A DNA stretch of 64,000 nucleotides from Patescibacteria group bacterium (GTDB lineage: Bacteria > Patescibacteriota > Patescibacteriia > Magasanikbacterales > JBBTQS01). The notes under the pieces were generated by a model. The model saw nothing but the letters and a program-made list of their open reading frames with translations, searched no databases and was not told the DNA's origin. Of this stretch, positions 504 to 61,042 are shown piece by piece. A program made the position numbers and the translations under genes. The stretch is from contig JBBTQS010000004.1 of assembly GCA_038065555.1 (NCBI GenBank), positions 65 to 64,064 on the forward strand, in the 5' to 3' direction. Position 1 is the first letter of the stretch, and each line of letters starts with the position of its first letter.

Positions 504-1034
504 TCACTCCGAATACTTCACGGCTTTGAGCGCGCTGAGGCAGGACTTGGGGATATCGGTCGGTGTGCGCTCTGGCGTGTGCTGAACAACGAGCATTTCA
601 CTGTCAAGAACCAGCTTGACTGCAGTGCGATCGGATGATGCGCCTCGCTGGCTGGATTCCCAAGCAGATTTGCTCATCACATAGTAGCGCACCCAGCTCC
701 CAACCCAGAGATCGGAGCCTGGGACGATGACGTCCAGGCGCATCTGCACCGGTGCCACCTCGTCTCCCACAGTCACGGCAAATACATCTCTGCATTCCTG
801 TGTTGTTACGATTGCAAAGGGATAGGTCGGATCATGGAACAGCACCTCCCCATACACAGGCGCCACAGGAAAGGCAGGATCGCCTTGGACTTCTTCGATG
901 GGAGCCACGACCTCGACTTGTGGCTGGGGTGCAGCAGTGTGCTCATCGCGTTGTTCCAATAATACGTAGGTGATACCCGATCCTGCAGCAAGAATGATGA
1001 TGAACAGGAGCTCAGCGAGCAGTCTCTTTGACAT
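504..1034 (-). CDS. hypothetical membrane-anchored protein (N-terminal TM helix)
   Basis: 176-aa ORF. Start ATG lies 2 nt after the trmD stop (translational coupling). Hydrophobic N-terminus LLAELLFIIILAAG. No recognisable domain; sits where rplS normally is but is not rplS. Confidence 0.55.
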   Translation of the reverse strand: MSKRLLAELLFIIILAAGSGITYVLLEQRDEHTAAPQPQVEVVAPIEEVQGDPAFPVAPVYGEVLFHDPTYPFAIVTTQECRDVFAVTVGDEVAPVQMRLDVIVPGSDLWVGSWVRYYVMSKSAWESSQRGASSDRTAVKLVLDSEMLVVQHTPERTPTDIPKSCLSALKAVKYSE

Positions 1035-1036
1035 AG

Positions 1037-1729
1037 TTATTTCTTGCGTGATTCAGATCGCCACTTGGCAATCGCTGCATGGTTGCCAGAGAGGAGAATC
1101 GCTGGCACTTCCCACGAACCGAACTTCTCTGGACGCGTGTATTGTGGATATTCAGCACCTTGGTCATCATCCCCTTTGCCAAATGTCTCCTGATCAAGCG
1201 ATTCCTGGTTGCCCAGCACCCCAGGAACAAGACGACTCACAGCCTCGATCATGGTGAGCGCTGGGAGCTCGCCGCCAGCGAGGACGAAGTCTCCGATCGA
1301 AACCTCTTCGTCCACGCAGAATTCTGCGACGCGGTGGTCCACGCCTTCGTAGCGACCGCAAACAAAGACAATCCGATCGTACTTCTCTACCCACTCCTCT
1401 GCTACACGCTGAGTGAAAGTGCGACCGCGTGGAGACATGAGGACGGTGTGGGTGCGCTCATCGTGCGTGCCTTCTGCTGCATTGGCCTTGGGAGAGAGCG
1501 CATTGTGCGCAGCAAGCGCGCGATGCCACGGCTCCACACGCATAACCATGCCTGGGCCGCCGCCATAGGGCGAATCATCGACGGTCTGGTGCTTGTCGAT
1601 GGCGTAGTCGCGGAGATTGATCGATTCGATCTTGATCGCGCCTGCTTCTTGGCCGCGGCCGAGAATGCTCTCGTCGGCGTAATTACGGATGAGATCTGGG
1701 AAAATGGTAATGACGGAGAATGTTTTCAT
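1037..1729 (-). CDS. trmD: tRNA (guanine37-N1)-methyltransferase TrmD
   Basis: MKTFSVITIFPDL...SPYGGGPGMVM...VFVCGRYEGVDHRV are diagnostic SPOUT/TrmD motifs. Start chosen at the internal MKTF rather than the ORF-track start. Confidence 0.92.
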   Translation of the reverse strand: MKTFSVITIFPDLIRNYADESILGRGQEAGAIKIESINLRDYAIDKHQTVDDSPYGGGPGMVMRVEPWHRALAAHNALSPKANAAEGTHDERTHTVLMSPRGRTFTQRVAEEWVEKYDRIVFVCGRYEGVDHRVAEFCVDEEVSIGDFVLAGGELPALTMIEAVSRLVPGVLGNQESLDQETFGKGDDDQGAEYPQYTRPEKFGSWEVPAILLSGNHAAIAKWRSESRKK

Positions 1730-1839
1730 ACGTGTGTAGCATACGCTACTAGGTATATTTTGCAAAAAGTAGAAGCCCTCCAACGATGAATCATTGGAGG
1801 GCTTCTGTTAGTTAGAGGCAGTGGATGAAACACCGAACC

Positions 1840-4479
1840 TCATCGGACTGAAGATATCAACTCGTACAGTTCTTGCAGTTGATACCAATGCACTGAACGC
1901 CGTAGCCTTCGCAACGCTCCAGCTTCCATTTGGCGGATTCGTTCTCGAGTGAGATTGAATATGCGTCCAACCTCCTCGAGAGAAAGTGGTTCCTCGCCAC
2001 CCAGCCCGTACCGCAACATGAGGATCTTGGATTGCTTCACAGAGAGAACACTGAAGACCGAACCCAGAAGATCGGAAACGACCTGTGGGAATGTACACTG
2101 AACCATGATCGACTCGGGGTCCTGTTTTAGACCCTCAAGACGTCCACCCAATGCATCCCAGCCGATCTCGACTCCTGCACTCAGTTGCGTCTTATCCCGG
2201 TACATCTCAGTCGTGAGGTGTTCAAGATCTTCCGCACACCATCCCCAGTCTGTCACTCCAGTGACATCCCCATAATTGTGGTTCTTGTAAACTTGGAATG
2301 CCCCCTCAGGAAAGAACCGCGCCATGAAAACGACGTAAGAAATCTTCTCTGCCATTATGCCGCAGTATCGCAGAAGTGTAGCGCCTGTCCCCACGAAGAG
2401 CTCATGTCGGAAGATGACCCACCGAAACTCTTGGTAGAACGGGATTTTGTCCTCGGTAATGTGAGGTGATGAGAGGAGAAGTGTCCGGAGCTGCTCCGTG
2501 TTCTTGGGGTCCAGGGTTGGTCTACCGTAGTACCCTTCGAACACAATCCTCCGCTGTACCGTTACCGACTCGACATTGCCGAACTCCCGATTCTTCGTAG
2601 GCTTTGGCCTTGCTTCGTCGCTCTTCCGCTGTTTTTGCGAACCTATGAGCTCTCCTTGCTCATAGGTCGGCATATTCCAGTCGAAGAGATCAAGCGGAAG
2701 GATAGGCGGCTCCCGCAGCCCCTTCGGAATGATCACGCACACCATCGCCTCCTCCGTACCCCACTTCGTGAGAGGTCGGAAGAACTTCTGAGTAGCGCGC
2801 ACCCACGAACGTACCGGCGCCAGGTCAATGAGCAGTTTGCACCGTGGTGCATTCCACCCCTCGATCAGGACACCGACGTTGATGATCGTGTCAACAACCC
2901 CATCGTCGAACGATCTGAGAATTGTGTCCCGACCTCGGGTTTCGCCGATCACCACCGCCGGCTCAGGTGTTCCAGGAGGACGCCTGAGTTTGAAGTAGTG
3001 AGCGAGATCGCCCGCTTGCTGACGCGTAACACAGCATAACAAGGCACTCTTCTTTCGATTCTCATCCGAGTAGCGACATTGAAGTGCTGCTTCCAGGAAT
3101 GGAACGTCAGACATGATCTTTCCAAGCTCATCCTCATCGTAGCCTTCTTCCCCGATTACTCGAACTGTGGAGGCGTTTCGATCCACCTCCGCAACCCAGA
3201 GTCGCATAGGTGCGACCATTTCGAGTTCGAGAGCTTCCGTAATCGTGATCTCATGGATGAGTCTCTTAAAGTATCGAGCCAACCGTCTTTCGTAGCTGTA
3301 ATTCGGCGTTGCAGTGAAGGCTACTCGAATAGCGAGAATGTGGAAGCCTTGCTTGATCACCTTCTGTCGCGCCACAGTCATACTGGCATGCGCCTCATCG
3401 AAGCAGACCAGCGATGAGCAGGCGAGCTCTGGCGGAAGACAGCCATGCTCGGCAAAAAGATTCTGGAGACTCTGGTAGGTGATGACGTTGATGCCCCACC
3501 AAACCAAACTCTTCTCTGAGTCATAGTAGGCGCCGATAGGAACATTCGGAAGCTGCGCACGCAACTCTCGTACCGTTTGTACCACCAACGCCCGCCGAGG
3601 AACGACGACTGTAGTCATCATCCCCGAACCCATCGCGATCTGCCCCATGAGAACCGTCTTACCGGTTCGAGGTGGCAGGATGATGCGCGCAGTAGGTGTG
3701 TCTGCCTCGTACAACTCCGGATTAGTCGCGACCTCTCTGAGGTACTCAGCAAAGTCGAGGTAAACCCCTATCTGCCGCTCGTAGAGTACACGACTAGACC
3801 CAGGTACCCCCCCACCCTCGAGCATGCCGATCCGATGCGCGGCGCGCATCAACCGGTCAGTCATGGAGAGAGAGGATTGTTCGAATTCCAGGAAGTGTGT
3901 GACTTCACCTTTGTCTTCCAGGACTCCGTCCTCTTCGAGTGTTCTCGGCTTCATCGACGAATAAACCGGCGCTCCGAAGAGCTTTCGGATATTGGCGTCA
4001 TTTCCCGAGTTATGACTCGTCGTGAAGGCGAGTCGAACGGCTCGGAAGTAGTCGATGGCATGTCGGTACTTGAGAACGTTCACTTCCTGCACATCATCAA
4101 TGATGAGGAGAGCGAACGCATCGGGGTTGAATCCGAACATCGTGTGGAGCGACTCCATAGTGGTTAGAAGGATGTCGCAGGAATACACTTCCGGCGCTTC
4201 ACCCTTCCCCACGAAGACGCTGACACCCAGATCACCCACGGACTCGAGCAGTTCCTCGCGGAGTTGATCTAGTGGCGCTTCAGACTCAAAGAGCAAACAC
4301 ACTCGACCTCGTGCAGCTTCGATCCAAAGCCTCAATACGAGACCGTAGACGTAAGTCCTGTCGAGATCGCTGTTGAGGCACAGAGCCTTTTCACGACCCT
4401 CAGCGAAATGAGTCAGAACTGCCTCAGCACACGCCTCCTCCATATCGAATACCATCATTGCATTCTGCTGCATCATCAT
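1840..4479 (-). CDS. SF2 DEAH-box helicase fused to a C-terminal sigma-70 region 4 (HTH) domain
   Basis: Walker A PPRTGKTV, motif II CFDEAH, motif III FTATP, helicase-C block. Extreme C-terminus LMLRYGLGGEEPLSLEEVGRIFNLTRERIRQMEAGALRRLRR matches the sigma-70 r4.2 consensus. GGAGA sits 8 nt before the ATG at 4479. Confidence 0.75.
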   Translation of the reverse strand: MMMQQNAMMVFDMEEACAEAVLTHFAEGREKALCLNSDLDRTYVYGLVLRLWIEAARGRVCLLFESEAPLDQLREELLESVGDLGVSVFVGKGEAPEVYSCDILLTTMESLHTMFGFNPDAFALLIIDDVQEVNVLKYRHAIDYFRAVRLAFTTSHNSGNDANIRKLFGAPVYSSMKPRTLEEDGVLEDKGEVTHFLEFEQSSLSMTDRLMRAAHRIGMLEGGGVPGSSRVLYERQIGVYLDFAEYLREVATNPELYEADTPTARIILPPRTGKTVLMGQIAMGSGMMTTVVVPRRALVVQTVRELRAQLPNVPIGAYYDSEKSLVWWGINVITYQSLQNLFAEHGCLPPELACSSLVCFDEAHASMTVARQKVIKQGFHILAIRVAFTATPNYSYERRLARYFKRLIHEITITEALELEMVAPMRLWVAEVDRNASTVRVIGEEGYDEDELGKIMSDVPFLEAALQCRYSDENRKKSALLCCVTRQQAGDLAHYFKLRRPPGTPEPAVVIGETRGRDTILRSFDDGVVDTIINVGVLIEGWNAPRCKLLIDLAPVRSWVRATQKFFRPLTKWGTEEAMVCVIIPKGLREPPILPLDLFDWNMPTYEQGELIGSQKQRKSDEARPKPTKNREFGNVESVTVQRRIVFEGYYGRPTLDPKNTEQLRTLLLSSPHITEDKIPFYQEFRWVIFRHELFVGTGATLLRYCGIMAEKISYVVFMARFFPEGAFQVYKNHNYGDVTGVTDWGWCAEDLEHLTTEMYRDKTQLSAGVEIGWDALGGRLEGLKQDPESIMVQCTFPQVVSDLLGSVFSVLSVKQSKILMLRYGLGGEEPLSLEEVGRIFNLTRERIRQMEAGALRRLRRSVHWYQLQELYELISSVR

Positions 4480-4652
4480 GATCTTTATCTCCAAGGTTTG
4501 ATCGGAATGAAAAGAGCGGTGCTGGAGAAATCCGAGCACAGTCTTGAAGATAACAAGGCATACTACTAAGGATTTACCAAGTTGTCAATATAGCAAAAGC
4601 CCCAACCACGCGTCGCGCAGTTAGGGCCTCATTGTCTCTGTTGTCACACACG

Positions 4653-5261
4653 TCACCACACCATTTGCTTGCGCAGTTGCCTGATCCTGATGGCGAACGC
4701 CACAAACCCAATGGACAGGATCTGGTGCGCCACGAGCCATGGTGAATGCTGCTCGTACATGAGCCATGCGCAACTCACATGCATGAACACAAGCCACCAG
4801 TATCCACTGATTCGCTGGTGCGCGAGTTGGTAGGTCCCCGCAAGGAACCCAACCACCAATCCGATTTCCAGCCACTGCGTGAACTGTTCCATCACACCAA
4901 GATCACGAAAGCTCAGCGCGATTCCCAAGACAATACAGATGTTGGCGATATGATCGATGAGTCGCGGTGTTGCAACGCGAGTCCCAATCTGCCGCGCAGC
5001 GCGCAGCCCGATCACCATCGATGGCAGAGCGCTGAGCTCAAGGAGCGCAGCAATCCAGTTGCGCCATGAAGCGAATACCACCACCCATGGCAACAAACCA
5101 GCAATGTACGTCCACCAACCCAGCACCAGAGCGCGCGACGCTTCTTGTTGTCGTCGCCGCAACACGAGCCATTCATATCGCGCGAAGAACATCTTGTTGA
5201 GCAGATAGAGTACCCCTCCGATGATCTGCAAAACAAGCGAGACGGTTTCGTTGAGATCCAT
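4653..5261 (-). CDS. polytopic integral membrane protein (possibly PnuC-like transporter; tentative)
   Basis: About six hydrophobic segments rich in Trp. Start at MDLNE, preceded by GGAGGTG with 5-nt spacing. Confidence 0.6.
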   Translation of the reverse strand: MDLNETVSLVLQIIGGVLYLLNKMFFARYEWLVLRRRQQEASRALVLGWWTYIAGLLPWVVVFASWRNWIAALLELSALPSMVIGLRAARQIGTRVATPRLIDHIANICIVLGIALSFRDLGVMEQFTQWLEIGLVVGFLAGTYQLAHQRISGYWWLVFMHVSCAWLMYEQHSPWLVAHQILSIGFVAFAIRIRQLRKQMVW

Positions 5262-5345
5262 GACCACCTCCACAAAATAGAAACCCCCCGACACGCGTTG
5301 CGCATCGAGGGGTACAGAGCCACTGCGCTGTCTTGCGGCGAACGA

Positions 5346-5564: not shown

Positions 5565-6008
5565 GGACACCCCCAATTGTCGACGTTCGCCCAACTTCTC
5601 ACGCACAATACGCGAGTCGATGGACGCTGCATCCTACCGTTTGTACCGCCACTTGTCAACTACTCTCCAATGAACAAACCCTCTGCCTGTGAAGACAAAG
5701 GGTTTGCGGTTCGCGAGCAGCGTTCGCTGCTCGGGGTGCTACTTGAGGCCGTTCCCCGCCGGCTGCGGAAGGATCGCAGACATCACCGTGTGCTGCGCCT
5801 GCACCTGTGGCTGCGACGACGGACGTGGCATGGCTAGGCGTTGAAGCCGACTCAGCGGCGCCGTCTCGGGGCACCACACTCCGGGAGGAAGATTCGACGT
5901 GCGATACGTCGAACGGACTATCTGATTCGAAGACACGGTTTTGGTTGATCCTTGCCAGTGTTGATCACCTACCATCACAGACCTTCTGTGAGAAGTGACT
6001 CAGGCAGT

Positions 6009-7415
6009 CTATGCTGGTTGCGCATTTTTGTCAACCGCGCTGTAGACAAATAATATTCCAAGAATCGCAATACCCACAGGATGATTCAAAAAAGGCGAAA
6101 CGAGATGTACAACCACAAGTGCAATCACACTACACACAACCCACGGCTGTGCACCGCGAAATATGAACACGAGGAATCCAACGAAAACCAACACACCGAC
6201 CATCCCGACTTCCATCCACATATCCAACCACCCGAGTTCGAGTGCTGCAGTCGTAAACTGTCCTTGCTCACGCAAGTCCGTACTCTCGTACGTGATCGCC
6301 GTGCCAAATCCAGACCCAAGAATTGGAGCTGACTTGATCTGCGTCCACATTGGTCCTGCTTGCGCCACACGATTTTGCACACCAGGCTCACCTGTAGTGA
6401 AGATTTCTTTTTGAATCGAAGGTGTGCCGCTGTGCAACCACGCAAGCGTCGTGCCCACTCCCATGATAAGCAGCGTGCTCGCGATGACCAGACCAACGAC
6501 AATCATTTTTGTCTTCACAACGACACCGAACTGTTTGCGCACGTACCACAATGCCATGCAACCAAGACCAGCAATCGCACCCAACCAAAAACTTCTAAAT
6601 AATGTAAGCACCACAGTGCTCACAACAATCAGTAGAGCAACGACCGTCCATTTCTGCACTGCGCGCTCACGCACCTGCACTATCAACTGCGCCACCAAAT
6701 ACACCAGGACTGGCAGAAGTATGAGCTGCGGCCACTCGTAGATGCGCCACATCCCGTAGGATGCTGGAGCGATTTGCCCGCCACTGGTCTGTCTCACAAA
6801 ATGATACAAATATGTTGCAACGGCACTCCCCGCTCCTGCAGTGAGCACAAAAATCAACCACGCTTTGGCACACAAGAACACGACACCCGCGCGTACAAGC
6901 GACGACACTTGTGAGAACCACTGCGCACGATGCGCGCGAGTAGCAAGATCGAACACAGGCAATACTGCCGCGAAGTACAGCCAGTTATTTCCGTCAGCAA
7001 GCACACGAGCTATGGGCAGATGCTCAATCCACGCACCATTCACCAATCCCCACATGATTACAGCAAGCATGGCAAGTATTGCGCGCACAGTGCGCTCTCG
7101 CATCAGCGCTGCAACACGTCGCTTGCGCACCACATCAATGATCCACGCCAGCATCACCACACCGAAGAGTCCCATGCGCAACGAAATCACCGCACCACCT
7201 GCATGTAATTCCAGGAGATGCCCATTACCACTCGTGAAGATCTCAGCAATCAGTGCAAGCACTCCATACTCCAACCGACGCAATGCAAGCACAAAGACAG
7301 CAACAACAAGCAGACCACACAAGACAGTCTCCACCTGCGCCGTACGGAAGACGACGAGACTCACGAGCGTGATCGCACTCAACCCAAGCAACCAATTTCG
7401 AAATGTATTGTCCAT
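6009..7415 (-). CDS. O-antigen ligase / Wzy-like polytopic membrane protein
   Basis: 468 aa with more than 10 TM segments and a large loop near the C-terminal third, typical of the Wzy_C/O-antigen ligase family. Confidence 0.6.
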   Translation of the reverse strand: MDNTFRNWLLGLSAITLVSLVVFRTAQVETVLCGLLVVAVFVLALRRLEYGVLALIAEIFTSGNGHLLELHAGGAVISLRMGLFGVVMLAWIIDVVRKRRVAALMRERTVRAILAMLAVIMWGLVNGAWIEHLPIARVLADGNNWLYFAAVLPVFDLATRAHRAQWFSQVSSLVRAGVVFLCAKAWLIFVLTAGAGSAVATYLYHFVRQTSGGQIAPASYGMWRIYEWPQLILLPVLVYLVAQLIVQVRERAVQKWTVVALLIVVSTVVLTLFRSFWLGAIAGLGCMALWYVRKQFGVVVKTKMIVVGLVIASTLLIMGVGTTLAWLHSGTPSIQKEIFTTGEPGVQNRVAQAGPMWTQIKSAPILGSGFGTAITYESTDLREQGQFTTAALELGWLDMWMEVGMVGVLVFVGFLVFIFRGAQPWVVCSVIALVVVHLVSPFLNHPVGIAILGILFVYSAVDKNAQPA

Positions 7416-7472: not shown

Positions 7473-7820
7473 CTAGATAGTGAAATCGTCGATTGCTGAG
7501 GTGTCTACTTCTTCAGGCAATGCGCTAGGCGTCATCTGCTGATCCTGATCGTCAGATTGCTGACGAGGACCACGCGAGCCTTCTGGTTCGTAGATGCGAA
7601 CGTTCACGCGCGCATTGTTCTTCGCACCAACGGTGCGGACAAGGCGGCGGATCGCTTCCGCAGTCTGACCTGAGCGACCGATAACGTACCCCATGTCCGA
7701 AGGGTTCACGTACAGAGTGAGCAACACACCGCGTTCATCGACTTTGCGTTCTACACGAACGTCTGCCGGATTGTTCACGAGTGCTTTGACCAGGTCCTCG
7801 AGGAACTTCTGATCTTCCAT
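7473..7820 (-). CDS. khpA: KH-domain RNA-binding protein (KhpA/YlqC-like) with acidic C-terminal tail
   Basis: MEDQKFLEDLVKALVNNPADVRVE...MGYVIGRSGQTAEAIRRLV is the KhpA KH fold with its GxxG loop. The upstream part of the ORF-track call overlaps a promoter and is excluded. Confidence 0.8.
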   Translation of the reverse strand: MEDQKFLEDLVKALVNNPADVRVERKVDERGVLLTLYVNPSDMGYVIGRSGQTAEAIRRLVRTVGAKNNARVNVRIYEPEGSRGPRQQSDDQDQQMTPSALPEEVDTSAIDDFTI

Positions 7821-7911
7821 AGTGCTTGTTCTACTATTTCGAGAGTGCTTGCCGCGGCTGGCGACCCTTTCAGACCGTGCTGTCTGACACAGCTGCTGGC
7901 AGGCTGTTGCG

Positions 7912-7941
7912 AGTATACCATAGAGGTTTTTTTGCTCGCAA
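7912..7941 (-). promoter_or_regulatory. putative sigma-70 promoter of khpA (TTGCGA ... TGgTATACT extended -10)
   Basis: Minus strand reads ttgcgagcaaaaaaacctctatggtatact about 80 nt upstream of the khpA start. Confidence 0.3.
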
Positions 7942-8104
7942 CAGACGCACAAACACAAACGCTTCGCACAGACGAACGCCCCAAACCCTTTGGGAGCTTC
8001 GTTCGCAAGTCCTCCCCGTAAACTGAGGTCCGGGCTTACTCACGAACTCCCAAAGGGTTTGGGGCTCTCGGTTATACGACGCGTGTACGTGTGCATCGGT
8101 TGCG

Positions 8105-8153
8105 CGTAAAAAAGATGAACCGCTCAGGAAGACGTGTGTCTTCTGAGCGGTTC
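8105..8153 (-). terminator. rho-independent terminator after the lipoprotein gene
   Basis: 16-bp near-perfect stem gaaccgctcaggaagac/gtcttctgagcggttc, followed on the minus strand by a T run. Confidence 0.6.
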
Positions 8154-8217
8154 GGGGATCACGCGGGGTGGGCGCATGGGAGGGATGCGGGGCGCGTGAT
8201 TTTGGAGTCGTGGGTTG

Positions 8218-8835
8218 TCAGGGAATGAGCGTGGGGCTGTCGGCGGTACGTCGGCCGACGAGGACTGGTGTGAAGTTGTCGAACAACTCGTTCTCTGTCA
8301 GCACCATCGAGATGCCGTAGAGACGACCGGCGTACGGCTTGATCTCGACACAGGGTGCGTGCTGACGACCATGCACATCAGTGACAGGAGTTGAAGCGCT
8401 TGTCCAGGCGCAGTACTCGACGCGTGTGATGCCGAACTCCTCCTTTGTGAGATCGAGTTGCACACGTTTGATAGGCGCTGCGTACTCAGACTCCGAGATG
8501 AGCAGCGTGCAGTACTTCTGCGCCTTGGTTACCGCAGTGAAGACCGCCTTCCTTTTCTCCTTCTCATCTGACCACTGAATGGTCACCCTACCGTAGACCG
8601 GAATAGGCAATTCGATCGCATCGTGGACGAGCGCGTCCGACGTTGCGACACACAGCAATGCCTGAAACTCGTGTGACCTTGGTTGGGCGACCTTCTTTGC
8701 CAGCTCCTCGGCCGGTGTCAAAGGGTACTCATCACGGCAGCCCGCGCTAATCGCGAGGATGACGAACGTGATGAGAAGAGCGAAGACGAACGCACCAAAT
8801 CGGTAGTGCGTCTTCATGCTTTTATCGAGTGCCAT
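8218..8835 (-). CDS. secreted/lipoprotein-like hypothetical protein
   Basis: Start MALDK with GAGGA 7 nt upstream. Signal peptide ending ...LAISAGC (lipobox-like). The ORF-track start at 8982 lies inside the predicted promoter. Confidence 0.6.
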   Translation of the reverse strand: MALDKSMKTHYRFGAFVFALLITFVILAISAGCRDEYPLTPAEELAKKVAQPRSHEFQALLCVATSDALVHDAIELPIPVYGRVTIQWSDEKEKRKAVFTAVTKAQKYCTLLISESEYAAPIKRVQLDLTKEEFGITRVEYCAWTSASTPVTDVHGRQHAPCVEIKPYAGRLYGISMVLTENELFDNFTPVLVGRRTADSPTLIP

Positions 8836-8976
8836 GAAAAGATCCTCATGCGCGCTAGTAACCGAGCGCGAACGGTGTAGGACTTCGGCTTGTGGCCGTG
8901 TCTTCAGCAAGTGCTCGAATTTCGAGCGTTTGCTGCAAATACGGAGACGCATCACCATAGCATAGAATTTCGATTT

Positions 8977-9023
8977 TGTCAAGACAAAACGAAACCACCC
9001 AGCGTGTGAGGCCAGGTGGTGCG
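8977..9023 (-). repeat. intergenic cassette copy A: terminator-like hairpin + T tract + TTGACA-17-TATGGT promoter
   Basis: ~47 bp near-identical to 10747-10794. On the minus strand it reads hairpin ccacc...ggtgg, then tttcgtttt, then TTGACA; -10 at 8954-8959. Confidence 0.7.
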
Positions 9024-9044
9024 TTGTGTTGGTCGGATGTCACT

Positions 9045-9932
9045 CTAGAATAATACCTCCACGAACTCATCCGGAACGAACATGCAGATGAGGATGACAA
9101 CCCCCATTATGACAATGAAGCCGATGATCTGACCGATGTTCCCCATGAAGGCTTGCCAACGTGTCGGCGGCATCTTGATCGTCGCAGATGCTGGTGCAGG
9201 TCGAGCAGTCATGTAGGCTGGTCGCGCTGACTCACCTTCAGCGAGATCGCGTTGCATCGACTCGATGATTTCGAACTCCTTGAGGGTGATTCCGAATCGT
9301 TTTTCCAAGACCTGTTCGATGCGATCTTTCATATCGGCAACGACATCAGCATTCTCCGCGAGTTCAAGCGGCGAATCTCTCGAGAAAAACGAACGTATGA
9401 ATCCTCCGCCTTGCTCCTTCGACGCCTTCACGAATGCGTTGTTGACCAATCCCGGTAGAATTCCTTGCTCAAACGGTTGATCATTGCAATCATCAACCAG
9501 CCTTTGCAACTTGGATTCATCGAGATCGTACACTAATTTCACCTTGAGGAAGACAGGTTGCGGCGTCAGCGACTCTGCAAAATCCCCTAGTGGCGTATTC
9601 CTTGTCCAGCGATTTTGTTTGAGCGTGTGACCGAGTGTGGCGAGCTTGCCTTGCTCGATACGAACCACGAACGAACTCGAGATCTCGCCCATCGGCACGA
9701 CGTAGTCTGCGTCGTAGGAGTACCCAGCAAGTGGATGTTCACCAGGCGGCAAGATACGCGCCCTGTTGCCTTCGCCACCGTAGAGCACGATGCGCTCGTT
9801 GGGACCGACCTGACAGCTCGTTGTCTCGACTTGCTCCCACGTCATGTAGAGCGCGATGCCGAGAATCACCGCAACGAAGAGACACACGGAGACCTTCACT
9901 ACCTGTATCTGTTTTCTTGAAGCACTGCTCAC
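9045..9932 (-). CDS. membrane protein with N- and C-terminal TM helices (SPFH/band-7-like, tentative)
   Basis: 295 aa, GTG start with GGAGGGG 6 nt upstream. TM helices at both ends flank a soluble domain. Confidence 0.6.
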   Translation of the reverse strand: MSSASRKQIQVVKVSVCLFVAVILGIALYMTWEQVETTSCQVGPNERIVLYGGEGNRARILPPGEHPLAGYSYDADYVVPMGEISSSFVVRIEQGKLATLGHTLKQNRWTRNTPLGDFAESLTPQPVFLKVKLVYDLDESKLQRLVDDCNDQPFEQGILPGLVNNAFVKASKEQGGGFIRSFFSRDSPLELAENADVVADMKDRIEQVLEKRFGITLKEFEIIESMQRDLAEGESARPAYMTARPAPASATIKMPPTRWQAFMGNIGQIIGFIVIMGVVILICMFVPDEFVEVLF

Positions 9933-43867: not shown

Positions 43868-45685
43868 ATGTTCAACCGTCTTGGAATCATTCTTGCCACT
43901 CTCGCACTTCTCCTGAGCGCCTCACCTGCGCCTGTATTTGCTATTACCGACGATGCGCTTACCGGCTCCACTGATGCAGCAAGTCCTACTGGATGCACGT
44001 GCACAGGTGCGCTGACCATCAGTTCAGGTGGCAAAGTCGCTGCAGGTCTTGCAGGATACGACCTCCCCAAAGTTTGTTCACAAGCTGCAGGAACCTACAA
44101 AGACGACACCTGCTCCAATCTCAAAGCCATCATCACAGCAGCAGACGCCGACGCCTGCACCAAGACAACAGTAGATGAGCTCATGGCAACCTATGGCATT
44201 CCACAGTTTGCCAAATCATACGTAACGGTTGTCGGGAGCTGTAGCTGGGGACCAGTGAGTGCGACTGTCGAAGCTCAAGCACCTGCTGTTACTGCTGTTG
44301 GCCAGCAAATGAGCGGCCAAAAAGAAGTAGAAGCCGAAAAAGAAAAACTCCCACCCAAAGCAATCAAACCAACACTTTCCATCGACATTCCAACAGTCTC
44401 CTTCACTGACCCCGAAGACTTGTCCTTGGTCGAAGATGCCAACGGTTCCAAATTTGTCATTCCGTATATTGGTCAGTATATCAACGGTGTATTTGAATAC
44501 GCTGTCGGACTCCTGGCATTTATTGCCGTCATGACCATTGTTGTTGCTGGACTCATGTGGGCAACTGCAGGAGGTAATGCGTCTCGCATCAGTAGTGCAA
44601 AAGAAGCGATCGGCCGCGCATTCATTGGTCTAGGAATTCTGCTCGGATCGTACACTATTTTGTACATTATTGACCCCAACTTGACGCAGTTGGGCCCCAT
44701 CAGTCTCAACGTGGTAGAGACCGAAGAATTCGAACTCAAGCAATTCGACAAATACGTCGCCGAGCCTAGTAACCCCGCGGACAAGGAACCAGGTGACGAA
44801 TCTACCCAAGGCGGCGCCGTTGCTTCCCCTGCAACAAAGCTGCTTACTGGTGCTGCAACTGGCGAGACCCAACGAGGTCGCTGTCAGATTGTGAACCTCC
44901 AGAACTTCCCGAAGTTCGACATCAACGCATTTGGTGATGGCAGCAATGGCAAATGTTTGTTACAAGAATTTGCGCCAACAATCGGGCAGTCCACTGCATT
45001 TGAAGGTCAGTATCTCACCAACACCACATTCCTAGGACGCACCGTCAAAGTACACAAAAAAGCAGCAGCTTCACTTCAAAAAGTCGAAGCGGAGATCAAA
45101 TCAATTCCATCACCTATTGTGAAAAAGTGGGTCGCAAGTTTCACCACACAAGGTGCGTACGTACAATACGCAGACAAAATGGAGAAGCTCTACGCACAGT
45201 GCGACAAGCCAGGTGCAAAAACGTGGGTAGTAACAAGCTCAAGTGGCGCTACAAAAGCACGCCTCTTCACCCGCATCCTCAAAAACTTGCACGGCAACCA
45301 CAGCGACGTCTTGCGTGGTGACTTGCACAGCCTCGGACTAGCCATCGACATGTACGCACCGCAAAACCCTGACTATCGACCAATCATCACCAACATTCCA
45401 CAACAAGTTGTGGATGCATTTCGCAGAAATGGCTGGTCATGGCTCGGTGCAACAGACCGACGTGACGCAATGCACTTCCAATATTTTGGTTCAACTTGTT
45501 TCTCAGGTCTTGGTACTGCATACCCAACCGGCACAGGCTGCTGCATCAATCAATGGCCAACCAAATCCAAGGCAACCGGCAAGTTCTCGGGCTGTATGGC
45601 AGCAGGTGGTGTAGCAACTTCCTACACTGAGTGTATGGGCGCGAATGGAAAGGCTGGTAATGGCTGGGTAGCTCAAAACCCATGA
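43868..45685 (+). CDS. secreted Cys-rich protein with central two-TM hairpin and C-terminal LAS/M15-type zinc peptidase domain
   Basis: Signal peptide ...PVFA-IT and ~7 Cys in the N-domain. Conserved block IPYIGQYINGVFEYAVGLLAFIAVMTIVVAGLMWATAGGNASRISSAKEAIGRAFIGLGILLGSYTILYIIDP. C-terminus carries HSLGLAID and DAMHFQY (H..G.A.D / D..H peptidoglycan-hydrolase zinc site). Confidence 0.7.
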   Translation: MFNRLGIILATLALLLSASPAPVFAITDDALTGSTDAASPTGCTCTGALTISSGGKVAAGLAGYDLPKVCSQAAGTYKDDTCSNLKAIITAADADACTKTTVDELMATYGIPQFAKSYVTVVGSCSWGPVSATVEAQAPAVTAVGQQMSGQKEVEAEKEKLPPKAIKPTLSIDIPTVSFTDPEDLSLVEDANGSKFVIPYIGQYINGVFEYAVGLLAFIAVMTIVVAGLMWATAGGNASRISSAKEAIGRAFIGLGILLGSYTILYIIDPNLTQLGPISLNVVETEEFELKQFDKYVAEPSNPADKEPGDESTQGGAVASPATKLLTGAATGETQRGRCQIVNLQNFPKFDINAFGDGSNGKCLLQEFAPTIGQSTAFEGQYLTNTTFLGRTVKVHKKAAASLQKVEAEIKSIPSPIVKKWVASFTTQGAYVQYADKMEKLYAQCDKPGAKTWVVTSSSGATKARLFTRILKNLHGNHSDVLRGDLHSLGLAIDMYAPQNPDYRPIITNIPQQVVDAFRRNGWSWLGATDRRDAMHFQYFGSTCFSGLGTAYPTGTGCCINQWPTKSKATGKFSGCMAAGGVATSYTECMGANGKAGNGWVAQNP

Positions 45686-47553
45686 TGCGCTCTTTCCTTG
45701 CAATAATCATCGGCCTTGCGATCTTTCTCCCTGCGTCCACACACGCAGCAGTCAAATGCACCGTAACTGAGGACTGCAATCCAGGCACGACCAACACAAT
45801 GTGCGTGTACACGAAGTTCGACCCTGCTTCCAAGCAGTTCGACACCGCAAGTGGCATGTGTCTCTCAGGGTCCGCAGTCAGCAGCATGCCTGATTGCGAT
45901 TTTGCTGGCATACAAATCTGCTCAACACAAAAAGCAAGCACCTGCGTTGGTATTATCTCCCAAGTAGGCAAGCAGCCAGCGAGTGGCGACACCGCATGTC
46001 TGCCTACAGAACTCATCATCGTTACCGACACCGCTGAAAAACTCCAACAAAACTCTGCTGCCGCCCAAGAAACAATCCTCGCAGCAACCATCAACTACGA
46101 ACAGGAGAAAGAGGCAATCGAAGCAACGTATCAATCGGTCGTCACCAATCCCCAAGCAACAGAACAACAAAAAATTGACGCACTCGTCGCACGCGAACAA
46201 GCGCTCAAGAACGCTGCGATCGAACACAGTGTCGTTATTGGAGCCATTTCCAAAACACTCAAGGAATCGACTGACGCAGCACTGAGCGAAGGTGCACTCG
46301 CTGTAGCTGGCGCAACGCAGCCAACCTCAGACTTGCCACTTCCTGCAACACTCAACGTGCCTATCCCAGGCGTAGTGTTCAGCAACCCAGCAGATATTGC
46401 AGGACGTGACGACGCTGGTGGGCGACTGAGTATCCCCTATATCGGACAATACATTGCTGGTGTCTTCCAATACTCACTCTACGTACTCGCAGGGCTCGCA
46501 GTGTTTGTAATCATATTCGCTGGCGTGCGCTGGATCCTCGCGCGTGGAAATGCATCGGAAATCAAAGATGCGAAGGAAATGATCACCGGATCGTTCATCG
46601 GCCTCATGATCGCATTGCTTTCCTACAGCATGTTGCAAATTATTGATCCTCGGCTCACAACACTCTCCCCCATAGGCCTCGCGCAAATTGAAGCAACTGA
46701 ATTCAAGTTCGAGCTCTCCGCACAAGTCTACCAACAAGTCACTGGCGGCAAACCACTCGATCTCTCCTCTGGTGGGAGAGCACAAAACGCTGCAACAGCA
46801 GCAACGGCAGCGCAAAACCTCGGCATACCACCTTGCCTTGCACAGGTTATCGTAAAACATGAATCAGGTGGCAACCCCGCAGTCATTGGACACGACGAGA
46901 ACTACTGCGGCCCTAACTATGTTGGCTCACGCTTCGCCTTCCTTCGCACAGAAAAAACATACAAAGGCGTTGCATTCGAGAGCACTATCCCATCCCTCAT
47001 TCCACCGTCCTCCGACAAGAGCCCGCAAGCCAAGGCTCTGCGCAAAAAAATCAGTTGTGAATCACACAAGAACGACGATGGCGGCAAGAATATCGATGCT
47101 ACCACATTTGTTCCACCTGATTTTGGACTGGACTGGAGATTTACCCACGGCTTTGGGTTGGGACAGGTAACATTTGGAGATGGACACTACTGCAATGTGA
47201 ACGGTCAACAAGTACGCGGTATCAAGATCAAAGGACTTAATAATCGCTGTGTCACGGTGCCAGAATTGATTTCCGTGGACACCGCAGTCGAAGCTATGGC
47301 TGGCCGCCTCCTCTCGTGGTATAAAAAGGCTGGTGGCGTACCAGGCACTCCGCAGAACCAAGTACCAGAATCAGTCATTCGCCTCACCTTCGCGCACTAT
47401 GGCAAAGGTAACGACCCAGGAGATCTCTATCGAGACTCCGTGAATGGTCGCGTCAAACACTATCTCGAATGTGTCAAAGGAACAGGCTCAAGCGCTCCTG
47501 AGACCTCAACGGGCGAAAAACTTTCTGACGGATTGCCCGCTGCCGAAGAATAA
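45682..47553 (+). CDS. paralog: secreted Cys-rich protein with two-TM hairpin and C-terminal lytic transglycosylase (SLT) domain
   Basis: Same architecture: IPYIGQYIAGVFQYSLYVLAGLAVFVIIFAGVRWILARGNASEIKDAKEMITGSFIGLMIALLSYSMLQIIDP. C-terminus has AQVIVKHESGGNPAVIGHDEN (SLT catalytic Glu-Ser motif). Confidence 0.7.
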   Translation: MMRSFLAIIIGLAIFLPASTHAAVKCTVTEDCNPGTTNTMCVYTKFDPASKQFDTASGMCLSGSAVSSMPDCDFAGIQICSTQKASTCVGIISQVGKQPASGDTACLPTELIIVTDTAEKLQQNSAAAQETILAATINYEQEKEAIEATYQSVVTNPQATEQQKIDALVAREQALKNAAIEHSVVIGAISKTLKESTDAALSEGALAVAGATQPTSDLPLPATLNVPIPGVVFSNPADIAGRDDAGGRLSIPYIGQYIAGVFQYSLYVLAGLAVFVIIFAGVRWILARGNASEIKDAKEMITGSFIGLMIALLSYSMLQIIDPRLTTLSPIGLAQIEATEFKFELSAQVYQQVTGGKPLDLSSGGRAQNAATAATAAQNLGIPPCLAQVIVKHESGGNPAVIGHDENYCGPNYVGSRFAFLRTEKTYKGVAFESTIPSLIPPSSDKSPQAKALRKKISCESHKNDDGGKNIDATTFVPPDFGLDWRFTHGFGLGQVTFGDGHYCNVNGQQVRGIKIKGLNNRCVTVPELISVDTAVEAMAGRLLSWYKKAGGVPGTPQNQVPESVIRLTFAHYGKGNDPGDLYRDSVNGRVKHYLECVKGTGSSAPETSTGEKLSDGLPAAEE

Positions 47554-58726: not shown

Positions 58727-58819
58727 AGTGCCACTAGTATATCATGCAGAACAAAAAAAGATGACCCGCCGGCGTTGAAGCGCGCGGCGGGCCAGTTGAA
58801 CACACGATGGTGTCGTCTC

Positions 58820-59251
58820 CTACAGAAGCCGCAGCTCCCGCATGTTGCGCGGAAATTTCCAGGACTCGCACGTGAGCCCTGTCTCAATCCGCGACATCCA
58901 CTTCCTCGTGATCTCATCGGTCGGTTCGACGACGAGATCCAGATGGTAGCACCGCCTCAGTGGTGGTGCTTGGACGCTTGTTCTCAGAACCCTCAGTCGC
59001 GGAGCAACGTCCTTGACGATACTCCACATGAATGGAAGATATCCACCACTCTTCAATGGATAGGGCAGATACACCCCCTTCCACGTCTCCACCTCCTTTT
59101 GCGAAATGATCCGGTCTGGCTCGAAGATGAGCTTGAGACCGGAGAGTTGCTTGTCGAACGTGACCACAATCACGCCCCATTGGTTTGGGCTCGTCACACG
59201 AATCCCCGCCTCGTTGCCGCGCACATCTCGTGCAGCAATTACGGTCGGCAT
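58820..59251 (-). CDS. hypothetical protein (143 aa)
   Basis: Strong RBS GGGAGGAGAAGAGG 2 nt before ATG. Protein-like composition. Lies antisense to the non-coding 5' extension of the ORF-track 58775-61042 call. Confidence 0.5.
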   Translation of the reverse strand: MPTVIAARDVRGNEAGIRVTSPNQWGVIVVTFDKQLSGLKLIFEPDRIISQKEVETWKGVYLPYPLKSGGYLPFMWSIVKDVAPRLRVLRTSVQAPPLRRCYHLDLVVEPTDEITRKWMSRIETGLTCESWKFPRNMRELRLL

Positions 59252-59350
59252 CGCCTCTTCTCCTCCCTGCGTTCACACCCGGAGCGCAAGTGTGGTATAC
59301 TATCGCCAATCAAACATTTTGTCAAGTATTACTTGCGTAATCATTTCTCT

Positions 59351-61042
59351 ATGTCGAAACGTTCTTTTTCAGAAAGTGACCCATCGATGCGTGGCGCACA
59401 TGGAGTAACTGGCGAACACGCAATCTCCGATACTCGACACAAAAGCATCGAGGAGCAGTTATCTCCTGCAGCACTCGCCGAACTTGCGCGTGATCAAGAG
59501 CGTTGGAACAAAGAAGATGCTGAGTTCATTGACGAACACGAAAAGTCACTCGAGACCAAACACCGAAACGCGCTCGCCGAAGCGCGCACAGAGGCGCTAC
59601 AGGCTGAAAAAGAAGTCTCGACTGAACTCGAAACACTTCTCGAGAGCAGTGCGCTTCCACCATTGGCAAAGAGAATCCTGAGTTCTGACACACATCTACG
59701 CAGTCAATTTGCAGATTCTCTGATCGAAGCTGCAGCACAAAATGGAACTACTGTTGATCGACTGAACAAAAATGGATGGAACGAAGCATTCGAAAGCGTG
59801 ATTGCACTACGACAACAAGAGTTAGAAGCACACGGACTTGCATTTGATACAGATGGTACACTTCTCCAAGGAGAAACATCCCGACGACTCAGCGAACACG
59901 ATACATTGCTCGCCAAAGAGCTCATGTGGTTGCGTGAACTTCTTCACGAGGAACCAGGCACAGCGAACAAGCCAAACCGCTTGGAGCCAACCCGTCCTCT
60001 GCGCCCTACCGCACAGCCAAAAGCAACACCTCCTCGCGAAACCAACAAACCATTCTTCAACCGAGTAGCATCCAAATTCGGCAAATTCCTTGCAGGTGTT
60101 GGACTCTGGCTTGGCGGAACCAGTGGTGGAGATTTCGACCAATCGTCGAACCAGCGCGCGCAGGACGAACAGGAGCCGAATCGCGCCCTTCCAGCATACG
60201 CAGCAGAATCACCTTCACGAAATACTCGCGCAGAACTCCCTTCTGACTCTATCGAATTCTCCGAAGAAGAATCCATGGATGTCATGAATAGTGCACGTCC
60301 TGAGGTTCCTTCTGAGATGATCGAGTTCTCCGAAGAAGAATCTGAGGCAGTGATGAAGGCTGAGGTAGCTGCAGCAGTGCGCAAAGCAAAGGCACAGAAC
60401 ACCAACAAAGCAGGCGCAACACGTGCAAAAGCAAGCACAGTGAACACCAAGCGTGCAGCAGCACCAGAAGGCACAAAGGCAATGCCGAAGGCAGCACAAG
60501 ACATGCTCGACGCATTCAAGTGGTACAGCGATGAAGTTACCAAGCCTAAGACGCGCGAATCCGTGAACAACGGTGGCGCAGCCAACGAACTCCTCAAGAG
60601 CGTACCCAAGGCTCCAGAGAAGCGTCAGTCTGTTGCGCGCTACAAAGTTGCTGCAACCAGACTTGCGCAAGAGTATGCCAAGGGATCTGTTGGAGACGAC
60701 GATCTCACATCATTGCGCGGCACCGTTGAGAGCGACATGCAGCGAGGCAAAATCAATCCTGTTGATGGCAAGAAGTTGCTCCGCGATATCGACGACATGC
60801 GCGGTGTTCCCGAAGCTCAACAAGCAGCAAAGCCAGCGCCAGAATTCAAGAAGCCAGTCATGGCTCGCACACCAAGCAAGAGCCGAGGTCTCTCTGCCAT
60901 CCAAGCACAGACCGCGGAAGGCAAGAAAGTTCTCTCTGATATTGACCGCCAGATTCAATCCGTTCGCGACGCAGTACATCGCGGCGAACTCACATTGAAG
61001 CAAGGCGCAGAGCAGGTTCGAATGCTCAAAGACCTCAAGTAG
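59351..61042 (+). CDS. acidic, low-complexity/disordered protein with internal IEFSEEES repeat
   Basis: Start at MSKRSFSE. Long charged coiled-coil/disordered regions. Direct repeat of ~23 nt (atcgaattctccgaagaagaatc) about 66 nt apart. Confidence 0.55.
   Translation: MSKRSFSESDPSMRGAHGVTGEHAISDTRHKSIEEQLSPAALAELARDQERWNKEDAEFIDEHEKSLETKHRNALAEARTEALQAEKEVSTELETLLESSALPPLAKRILSSDTHLRSQFADSLIEAAAQNGTTVDRLNKNGWNEAFESVIALRQQELEAHGLAFDTDGTLLQGETSRRLSEHDTLLAKELMWLRELLHEEPGTANKPNRLEPTRPLRPTAQPKATPPRETNKPFFNRVASKFGKFLAGVGLWLGGTSGGDFDQSSNQRAQDEQEPNRALPAYAAESPSRNTRAELPSDSIEFSEEESMDVMNSARPEVPSEMIEFSEEESEAVMKAEVAAAVRKAKAQNTNKAGATRAKASTVNTKRAAAPEGTKAMPKAAQDMLDAFKWYSDEVTKPKTRESVNNGGAANELLKSVPKAPEKRQSVARYKVAATRLAQEYAKGSVGDDDLTSLRGTVESDMQRGKINPVDGKKLLRDIDDMRGVPEAQQAAKPAPEFKKPVMARTPSKSRGLSAIQAQTAEGKKVLSDIDRQIQSVRDAVHRGELTLKQGAEQVRMLKDLK

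Follow-up and report, generated by a model that had tools for sequence, protein, structure and literature searches.

A superfamily 2 helicase fused to sigma-70 region 4 belongs to a small, undescribed protein family of uncultivated bacteria

What is the -35-reading domain of a sigma factor doing at the end of a helicase? The question is raised by a single gene in a 64,000-nt stretch of DNA from a Patescibacteria group bacterium (contig JBBTQS010000004.1; the whole stretch is hereafter called the window). The gene lies on the minus strand at 1840..4479, and an earlier examination of the letters alone (the sequence-only reading) described it as one uninterrupted frame carrying a core of a superfamily 2 (SF2) helicase and a domain of a sigma factor. 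Translation bears this out: counted from ATG, the coding sequence is one unbroken open reading frame (ORF) of 879 amino acids (aa) plus a stop codon, and an alternative start at an upstream GTG would extend it to 4539. We found that the fusion is real and that it defines a small, undescribed protein family. The reading that we favor, and to which we give about an even chance, is that the protein is a translocase delivered by its sigma-70 region 4 domain (sigma4) to the flap tip of RNA polymerase (RNAP) and/or to -35 DNA, following a logic similar to that of RapA and Mfd.

The match to Sigma70_r4 that had been expected at the C-terminus was found (Pfam PF04545, residues 810-860, E=3.5e-13, 49.3 bits compared to a gathering score of 24.1). 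All significant matches in a PDB sequence search were sigma factors, aligned via domain 4, the best of them being domain 4 of Thermotoga sigmaA (1tty, E=4e-12). The NCBIfam models of the RpoD, RpoS and SigA type, and that of MzaA, align to the protein only through their last ~65-75 positions, and a primary sigma factor aligns to it in region 4 only, with 47% identity over 64 residues (BLASTP). The resemblance had been placed in the last ~45 residues; the match to region 4 is indeed significant, however it takes in ~75 residues (800-874; 1858..2082, minus strand), comprising region 4.1, the region 4.2 helix-turn-helix (HTH) and a tail, and it is gapless compared to regions 4.1/4.2 of E. coli sigma70. 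The C-terminal motifs in the translation are LRYGL, SLEEVG, TRERIRQME and ALRRLRR; thus, three of the motifs named earlier (LRYGL, TRERIRQ-E and ALRRLRR) stand, whereas the fourth, given as TLEEVG, actually reads SLEEVG. The recognition helix, TRERIRQ, occupies residues 844-850 (1930-1950, minus strand) in the translation. Using E. coli numbering, the residues that read the -35 element, R584, E585, R586, R588 and Q589, are kept as R845, E846, R847, R849 and Q850; the core positions L551, G564 and L598 are also kept, and the positions of R554 and K593 are Lys and Gly, respectively. At the flap-contact positions L607, F610 and L611 the protein has L868 (the equivalent of L607, and Leu in both), L871 and Y872, which is only suggestive of flap binding.

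The likeness to group-1 sigma factors (RpoD/SigA) consists of the gapless 4.1/4.2 alignment and the -35-reading residues and, in relatives of the protein, also of the tail HPSRS..L..FL and the position at which the chain ends; conversely, regions 1.1, 2 and 3 are lacking. Pfam gave no match to Sigma70_r1, Sigma70_r2 or Sigma70_r3 in the window protein at E<=1. Therefore, it would have no means of binding the beta' clamp helices, recognizing a -10 element or opening DNA in the manner of a sigma factor. Judged by its domain content, the helicase-sigma4 protein is not a sigma factor, region 2 being absent. Some PDB alignments reached back to residue 731, which raised the possibility of a further sigma region (region 3) before sigma4. 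This candidate was rejected, since the segment alone (residues 730-805) found no match in the PDB and BLASTP aligned region 4 only.

The helicase motifs are also intact. Motif I (Walker A, PPRTGKT) occupies residues 269-275 (nt 3655-3675), motif II (DEAH) residues 361-364 (nt 3388-3399), motif III (TATP) residues 389-392 (nt 3304-3315) and motif VI (QKFFRPLT) residues 564-571 (nt 2767-2790), so that translation verified each of the SF2 core motifs claimed earlier (GKT Walker A, DEAH and TATP). The features of SF2 are all present: a Walker A GKT and a DExH box, with PPRTGKT and DEAH invariant across the family, two tandem RecA-like lobes, TATP, and the invariant Q564 and R568 of motif VI. Residues K274, D361, E362, H364, Q564 and R568 vary hardly or not at all in the family; therefore, the ATPase is under selection. 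Pfam matches the window protein with ResIII (E=2.6e-14, 53.9 bits compared to a cutoff of 22.5) and DEAD (E=2.3e-9, 37.7 bits compared to a cutoff of 26). Helicase_C, also claimed earlier, is below threshold in this protein (14.6 versus 23.5 bits); however, the second lobe is present in the structural model, and Helicase_C is matched in 48 of 62 full-length relatives.

The motor begins with a conserved helical lead (residues 206-262; 3694..3864, minus strand) bearing a ResIII-type Q-motif (LYERQ, Q236), in which the family shows almost no variation at L232 and Q236. RecA lobe 1 (residues 263-430; 3190..3693, minus strand) contains PPRTGKT, DEAH and TATP and is supported by the ResIII/DEAD matches, the invariant columns and a predicted local distance difference test score (pLDDT) of ~90 in the AlphaFold 2 (AF2) model. 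RecA lobe 2 (residues 431-600; 2680..3189, minus strand) contains motif VI with Q564 and R568 and a proline-rich latch, LPxxPxLPxDLF, at 585-597; it is supported by Helicase_C in relatives, by the two invariant residues and by Foldseek. The AF2 model was built on the family alignment and has a mean pLDDT of 71.5; its confidence is high for the motor (190-600), for part of the middle domain and for sigma4, and poor for the N-terminus. Foldseek searches of the PDB with the motor returned RadD, archaeal XPB, SauUSI, HsdR, CSB/Swi2-Snf2 enzymes and the TFIIH subunit Ssl2 (E 1e-15 to 1e-12, 12-21% identity, probability 1.0), with ~380-420 columns spanning both RecA lobes aligned with RadD, XPB and HsdR (probability 1.0). 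In overall fold, XPB/Ssl2 and RadD are the best structural matches to the two-lobe motor (E 1e-15 to 1e-13, probability 1.0, 17-21% identity; for XPB, E ~1e-15 and 19-21% identity); however, XPB and RadD have neither a sigma4 nor the middle domain described below. As modelled, the motor is of the double-stranded DNA (dsDNA) translocase side of SF2, similar to XPB, RadD and HsdR.

How widespread is this combination? A word-indexed search of 5.8 billion proteins yielded ~40 clusters with 32-53% identity to the window protein over residues ~200-879, and most of these close clusters carry a precomputed PF04545/Sigma70_r4 assignment. In the alignment the members are built alike: a short helical lead bearing the Q motif of the ResIII type is followed by the two-lobe motor, the proline-rich latch LPxxLPxxPVLPxDLF, a middle domain of ~130 residues, a variable helical linker and sigma4. 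The middle domain (residues 601-735; 2275..2679, minus strand) is specific to the family and contains the invariant HxLFxGxGxxLLRxLG (692-705), and the linker (residues 736-799; 2083..2274, minus strand) is poorly conserved, with low to medium pLDDT and no PDB match when searched alone. An exhaustive search of 1.84 billion representatives at 50% identity with a profile of the middle region retrieved no more than 201 proteins, 107 of them at E<=1e-30; in almost every case the match falls at about residues 380-620 of a protein of 650-900 aa. Hence, the middle domain is exclusive to the helicase-sigma4 family, and the family is small. Among the 62 full-length representatives at 50% identity, ResIII is found in all 62 and Sigma70_r4 in 46, compared to the 48 with Helicase_C mentioned above (E<=1e-3 in each case), and a hidden Markov model (HMM) of housekeeping sigma4 matches 88 of 127 relatives. 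The order helicase, middle domain, sigma4 is observed in more than 100 independent clusters. One or two of the 62 representatives bear extra domains (TPR_19, AAA_22, Beta-lactamase).

Homologs with the same fusion, which the sequence-only reading had suggested looking for, are thus found in other genomes. They occur in ~55 GTDB species-representative genomes, all of them metagenome-assembled genomes (MAGs), with a GC content of 40 to 73%. The labels of the carriers are Patescibacteria (many of them Uhrbacteria), Myxococcota/'Deltaproteobacteria' (Polyangiaceae, Kofleriaceae, Haliangiales) and assorted 'Gammaproteobacteria' or Desulfobacteraceae bins; no cultured organism with a family member was found in the scan of GTDB species representatives, and the family is confined to uncultivated lineages. 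In the source databases the proteins are annotated as 'DEAD/DEAH box helicase family protein', as 'hypothetical protein' and, once, as 'RNA polymerase sigma factor (sigma-70 family)'. We found no description of a helicase-sigma4 fusion in the searchable literature, and the earlier remark that no described family of this architecture was known holds for that literature and for curated libraries.

To compare the sigma4 domains, we scored 66 of them with the housekeeping-sigma4 HMM and called those with at least 45 bits sigmaA-grade. There are 13 sigmaA-grade domains, mostly from Patescibacteria, in which the -35-reading residues are kept as follows: R584 in 9, E585 in 12, R586 in all 13, R588 in 12 and Q589 in 12. 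The remaining 53 are diverged; they keep the fold, as well as R586 (50/53) and Q589 (44/53). A full group-1-like tail, HPSRS..L..F[ILV], is present in ~10 representatives (P0096, P0161, P0055, P0146, P0005, P0149, P0003, P0002, P0126 and P0113), of which 8 stop 26-29 residues after the equivalent of R586, as sigma70 does, while P0146 and P0002 run on. Because the H5 tail of a group-1 sigma factor is retained on these ~10 helicases, we suggest that the 3' end of an rpoD-type gene was the source from which sigma4 was captured. Separately, many members of the Myxococcota type (P0006, P0007, P0039, P0040, P0112, P0117, P0172 and others) have long extensions after sigma4, of up to ~325 aa; those of P0006 and P0007 are Cys-rich.

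The surroundings of the gene are not conserved. When the flanking ORFs of 55 loci were clustered all against all, no family recurred in more than 5 loci, and three homolog loci have unrelated housekeeping neighbors. The lack of a conserved neighbor, together with the housekeeping flanks, fits an autonomous factor of a housekeeping type. Searches of 50,697 phage records and 72,556 plasmids (tblastn) and of IMG/VR (pattern scan) detected only helicase cores at 20-26% identity, and no family member that has the middle domain or sigma4. Therefore, we are dealing with a stand-alone chromosomal gene, rather than with part of a multi-gene system or of a known mobile element. The nearest outgroup of the motor is a 'DNA helicase' of Firmicutes (pro)phage replication modules (phrog_16, 20-26% identity), which shares the unusual PPRTGKT Walker A and has neither the middle domain nor sigma4. 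It was seen at loci L061-L081 (Lactobacillaceae genomes) and L082-L136 (IMG/VR) and in phage matches H1-H12, and it hints at a phage-helicase ancestry of the motor.

From the directly observed features of the protein, namely the architecture, the intact motifs, their conservation throughout the family, the stand-alone chromosomal context and the retained DNA-reading and flap-contact residues, we infer binding to RNAP and/or -35 DNA, translocation, and a biological outcome. In the favored reading, sigma4 would be a delivery module that docks the motor on the beta-flap-tip helix of RNAP and/or on promoter DNA of the -35 type (TTGACA-like). The motor would then spend ATP to translocate on nearby duplex (upstream or promoter DNA), and this translocation would remodel, push or evict transcription complexes, while docking on the flap would compete with sigmaA region 4, NusA or RapA-type factors. 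Isolated region 4 of sigma70 suffices for flap binding, as seen in two-hybrid assays, and for -35 binding. Since sigma4 is the module that positions RNAP on promoters, the fusion should be a competitor of sigma at the flap tip and might recognize -35 elements. The H5 tail of sigma70 contacts the beta-flap tip and not DNA; F610 and L611 are contacts of MotA (PMC6755090), and according to the title of reference 46 in that paper, MotA shares its target residues at the C-terminus of sigma70 with the beta-flap tip. The substitution pair R541C/L607P is the standard one for breaking the contact between sigma4 and the flap (bioRxiv 10.1101/2022.01.24.477500). That helicases have kept the H5 tail is an argument for continued use of the RNAP-facing side of sigma4, at least in the subset with the full tail. 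A precedent for an SF2 ATPase at the site of sigma4 is RapA, whose contact on the flap-tip helix is the same hydrophobic patch and which binds to core RNAP and not to the holoenzyme (PMC8501970). The sequence-only reading had proposed a remodeller associated with RNAP or promoters that could compete with sigma or mimic it; the tail kept in relatives and the example of RapA lend this idea indirect support.

It should be noted that several observations weigh against this reading. In the window protein, the position of R541 is Ser, and the tail, RRSVHWYQLQELYEL, no longer follows HPSRS..L..FL. Of the 53 diverged domains, fewer than half have R584, and the same holds for E585 and for R588. Outside the sigmaA-grade minority, the H5 tail has disappeared or given way to long extensions, with only ~10 full tails in the family, and flap binding may not be a family-wide property. 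The middle domain is as conserved as the motor, yet it has no explanation in the proposed mechanism.

Comparison with known systems shows where the protein would differ from each of them. RapA/HepA would be the closest analog of the proposed mechanism, being an SF2 ATPase on RNAP that docks on the hydrophobic flap-tip patch used by sigma region 4 (PMC8501970); however, in RapA it is the ATPase lobes and an N-terminal domain of its own, rather than a sigma4, that reach the flap. The window protein scores 25.4 bits with SWI2_SNF2, compared to a cutoff of 26.7, its motor is nearer to RadD/XPB, and Pfam detected neither SNF2-rel_dom nor the RapA N- and C-terminal domains at E<=1, so it does not fall within RapA. 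Mfd is an SF2 dsDNA translocase that is tethered to RNAP by an RNAP-interaction domain (RID) of its own and pushes or removes RNAP from upstream DNA. Its motor is RecG-like and includes a TRG motif, and it also carries UvrB-homology domains; its tether is a Tudor-like RID that contacts the beta subunit, whereas the tether of the window protein would be sigma4. Pfam found no CarD/TRCF RNAP-interaction domain, TRCF C-terminal domain or UvrB-homology module at E<=1, and the protein is not an Mfd. MzaA, the sigma-70-family protein of the MZA anti-phage system, is likewise long and has a sigma4-type domain at its end, and its models match with E = 6e-19 (NCBIfam) and 1e-11 (PADLOC); however, the NCBIfam match covers the last ~70 residues only and reaches 68.3 bits versus a cutoff of 800. 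No Mza partner genes were found near the window gene, and neither its neighbors (trmD and membrane proteins) nor the 55 loci show a defense-island context. We regard the helicase-sigma4 protein as probably a motor that targets the transcription machinery; its tether would be one not described before, and its middle domain is an orphan.

The main rival explanation, possible although on balance unlikely, is that of a helicase for DNA repair, recombination or replication, in which sigma4 would be a borrowed, site-targeting HTH without contact to RNAP. The motor fold is closest to RadD, XPB and restriction-type translocases, the nearest outgroup in sequence is the (pro)phage replication-module helicase, and sigma4/LuxR-type HTHs are common DNA-binding modules. 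Moreover, the sigma4 residues that are best kept family-wide are the fold core and the DNA-facing R586 and Q589, and the flap tail is often lost, which counts at the same time against docking on RNAP. Conversely, DNA binding alone hardly explains the subset that has kept the exact C-terminus of group-1 sigma factors, with an H5 tail that does not bind DNA, no repair genes and no conserved context are found around the 55 loci, and the RadD model (heli_RadD_YejH, NCBIfam) reaches 18.3 bits versus a cutoff of 720, over residues 401-559 only, so that the protein does not qualify as RadD (YejH). XPB is a dsDNA translocase that works at eukaryotic promoters. In another scenario, the helicase-sigma4 protein would put its own sigma4 at the flap-tip/-35 position, either replacing sigmaA region 4 or on core RNAP, and would then translocate at promoters driven by ATP. 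To our knowledge, bacterial transcription of the sigma70 type is thought to need no ATPase. A promoter-acting translocase, which we regard as quite unlikely, would add to it an energy-dependent step similar to that of XPB/TFIIH, in promoter opening, in escape or in the clearing of dead-end complexes.

A decoy or regulator, which would occupy the flap tip or titrate partners (anti-sigma-like proteins, activators) and thereby lower -35-dependent transcription, with the ATPase as a switch, would share all the sigma4 evidence with the favored reading. Other binders of the flap tip or sigma4 do compete, and PMC6755090 shows the flap-tip helix in a hydrophobic pocket of T4 AsiA. However, the family strictly conserves all the translocase motifs as well as the two RecA lobes, which a decoy does not need, and nothing points to a partner; we consider this explanation very unlikely. 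To the possibility of a component of anti-phage defense or of a mobile element (MzaA-like, restriction-like or phage-encoded) we give little credence. It could draw on MzaA as the best NCBIfam/PADLOC match of the C-terminus, on weak PADLOC matches to type I/IV restriction motors and to PbeA, and on the match to the phrog_16 DNA helicase. It was rejected because the MzaA match is limited to the sigma4 part, at 68 bits versus 800, no partner recurs in the 55 loci with their housekeeping flanks, and no family member was found in the phage, plasmid and IMG/VR collections. Finally, a misassembly or frameshift that fused two genes, or a decaying pseudogene, is hardly credible. The N-terminal 205 residues are confined to the window genome and resemble a decayed duplicate, and the sequence-only reading had itself raised a frameshift or stop that splits the helicase from the HTH. 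None was seen; the same domain order is conserved in the >100 clusters and ~55 genomes, the catalytic residues are intact, and an identical protein (P0001) is present on 5 contigs from NCBI, Logan and ENA, the NCBI record being a 'Patescibacteria group bacterium' MAG with the protein on an 881-kb contig. An artefact at the junction was therefore rejected.

Bacterial motors that recycle, push or remove RNAP include RapA, Mfd, HelD and UvrD/PcrA, each with a docking device of its own. A translocase that docks by means of a genuine sigma region 4 would differ from all of these, as it would reuse the module that positions RNAP on promoters, and would thus be a novel solution. If the favored reading is true, the family would offer a new handle on the clearing or remodelling of transcription complexes in Patescibacteria and Myxococcota-like bacteria, lineages without genetic systems for such questions, as well as a natural example of sigma-domain exaptation.

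The N-terminal extension of the window protein (residues 1-205; 3865..4479, minus strand) had been described as a second, degenerate RecA-like fold, and this is plausible, although it concerns this genome only and is not a family feature. The extension has no P-loop, and LLIIDDVQE and FTTSH stand in place of motif II (DEAH) and motif III (TATP), respectively. Its matches are weak and in register: it aligns with the RecA1 of the same protein at motifs Ia/Ib-II-III (BLASTP, E=0.05), and the family RecA1 profile matches residues 68-159 with E ~0.004 for a single comparison. Other weak matches are to HsdR in PADLOC (E=4e-5) and to DEAD in Pfam (E=0.095), and AF2 confidence is low here. No homologs of the extension were found among 180 relatives, nor by the word-indexed search, which is a weak negative, since that search also missed the identical P0001. 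The N-terminal extensions of P0003, P0055 and P0086 are unrelated to it. It looks like a lineage-specific, decayed partial duplication of RecA1, outside the design of the family.

As for signals of expression, a GGAG Shine-Dalgarno sequence is located at 4489..4492 (minus strand), 9 nt before the ATG at 4479. The 173-nt upstream gap contains a promoter-like TTGACA-N17-TAGTAT (4560..4588, minus strand; 10/12 matches in a consensus scan); such matches are no more frequent in the region than in shuffles, and this is a pattern match only. The -35 hexamer, 5' of the helicase-sigma4 gene itself, is a perfect TTGACA (again as a pattern match only), and it would be a candidate autoregulatory site if sigma4 of the protein reads -35 elements. 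A terminator-like hairpin of 16 pairs followed by a T-run (1771..1806, minus strand; sequence pattern) lies between the stop codon and trmD. The gene looks monocistronic, as far as these pattern matches indicate. The earlier reading placed it directly upstream of trmD; it does lie upstream, however ~110 nt with the hairpin and T-run intervene, and the pairing is neither operonic nor conserved. An operon with trmD was rejected because of this hairpin, the promoter-like site of the gene itself, and the absence of trmD as a neighbor in other loci.

In the window, the upstream neighbor of the gene encodes a 213-aa membrane protein (4653..5294, no Pfam match), and trmD is downstream (ORF 1037..1783, likely start 1729), followed on its 3' side by an ORF without a Pfam match (504..1034). 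The usual cluster is rpsP-KH-rimM-trmD-rplS. Here, three minus-strand genes foreign to this cluster are found between a KhpA-type KH-domain gene (7473..7958) and trmD, i.e., a Wzy_C/O-antigen-ligase-like membrane protein (6009..7415), the 213-aa membrane protein and the helicase; neither rimM nor rplS was recognized beside trmD in the window. At one Uhrbacteria homolog locus (L003), a diversity-generating-retroelement pair (bAvd and RVT_1) and an NTase/NTase_sub_bind pair are located a few kb downstream (8083..9466 and 5747..6387); their proximity is probably coincidental, as neither recurs in other loci. Two large ORFs of the window, 58775..61042 (plus strand, 755 aa) and 45682..47553 (plus strand, 623 aa), have no Pfam match at E<=1e-5. 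The remainder of the window is an ordinary chromosome of the candidate phyla radiation, with SMC, DnaE, PheT, ClpB, RecG and TypA.

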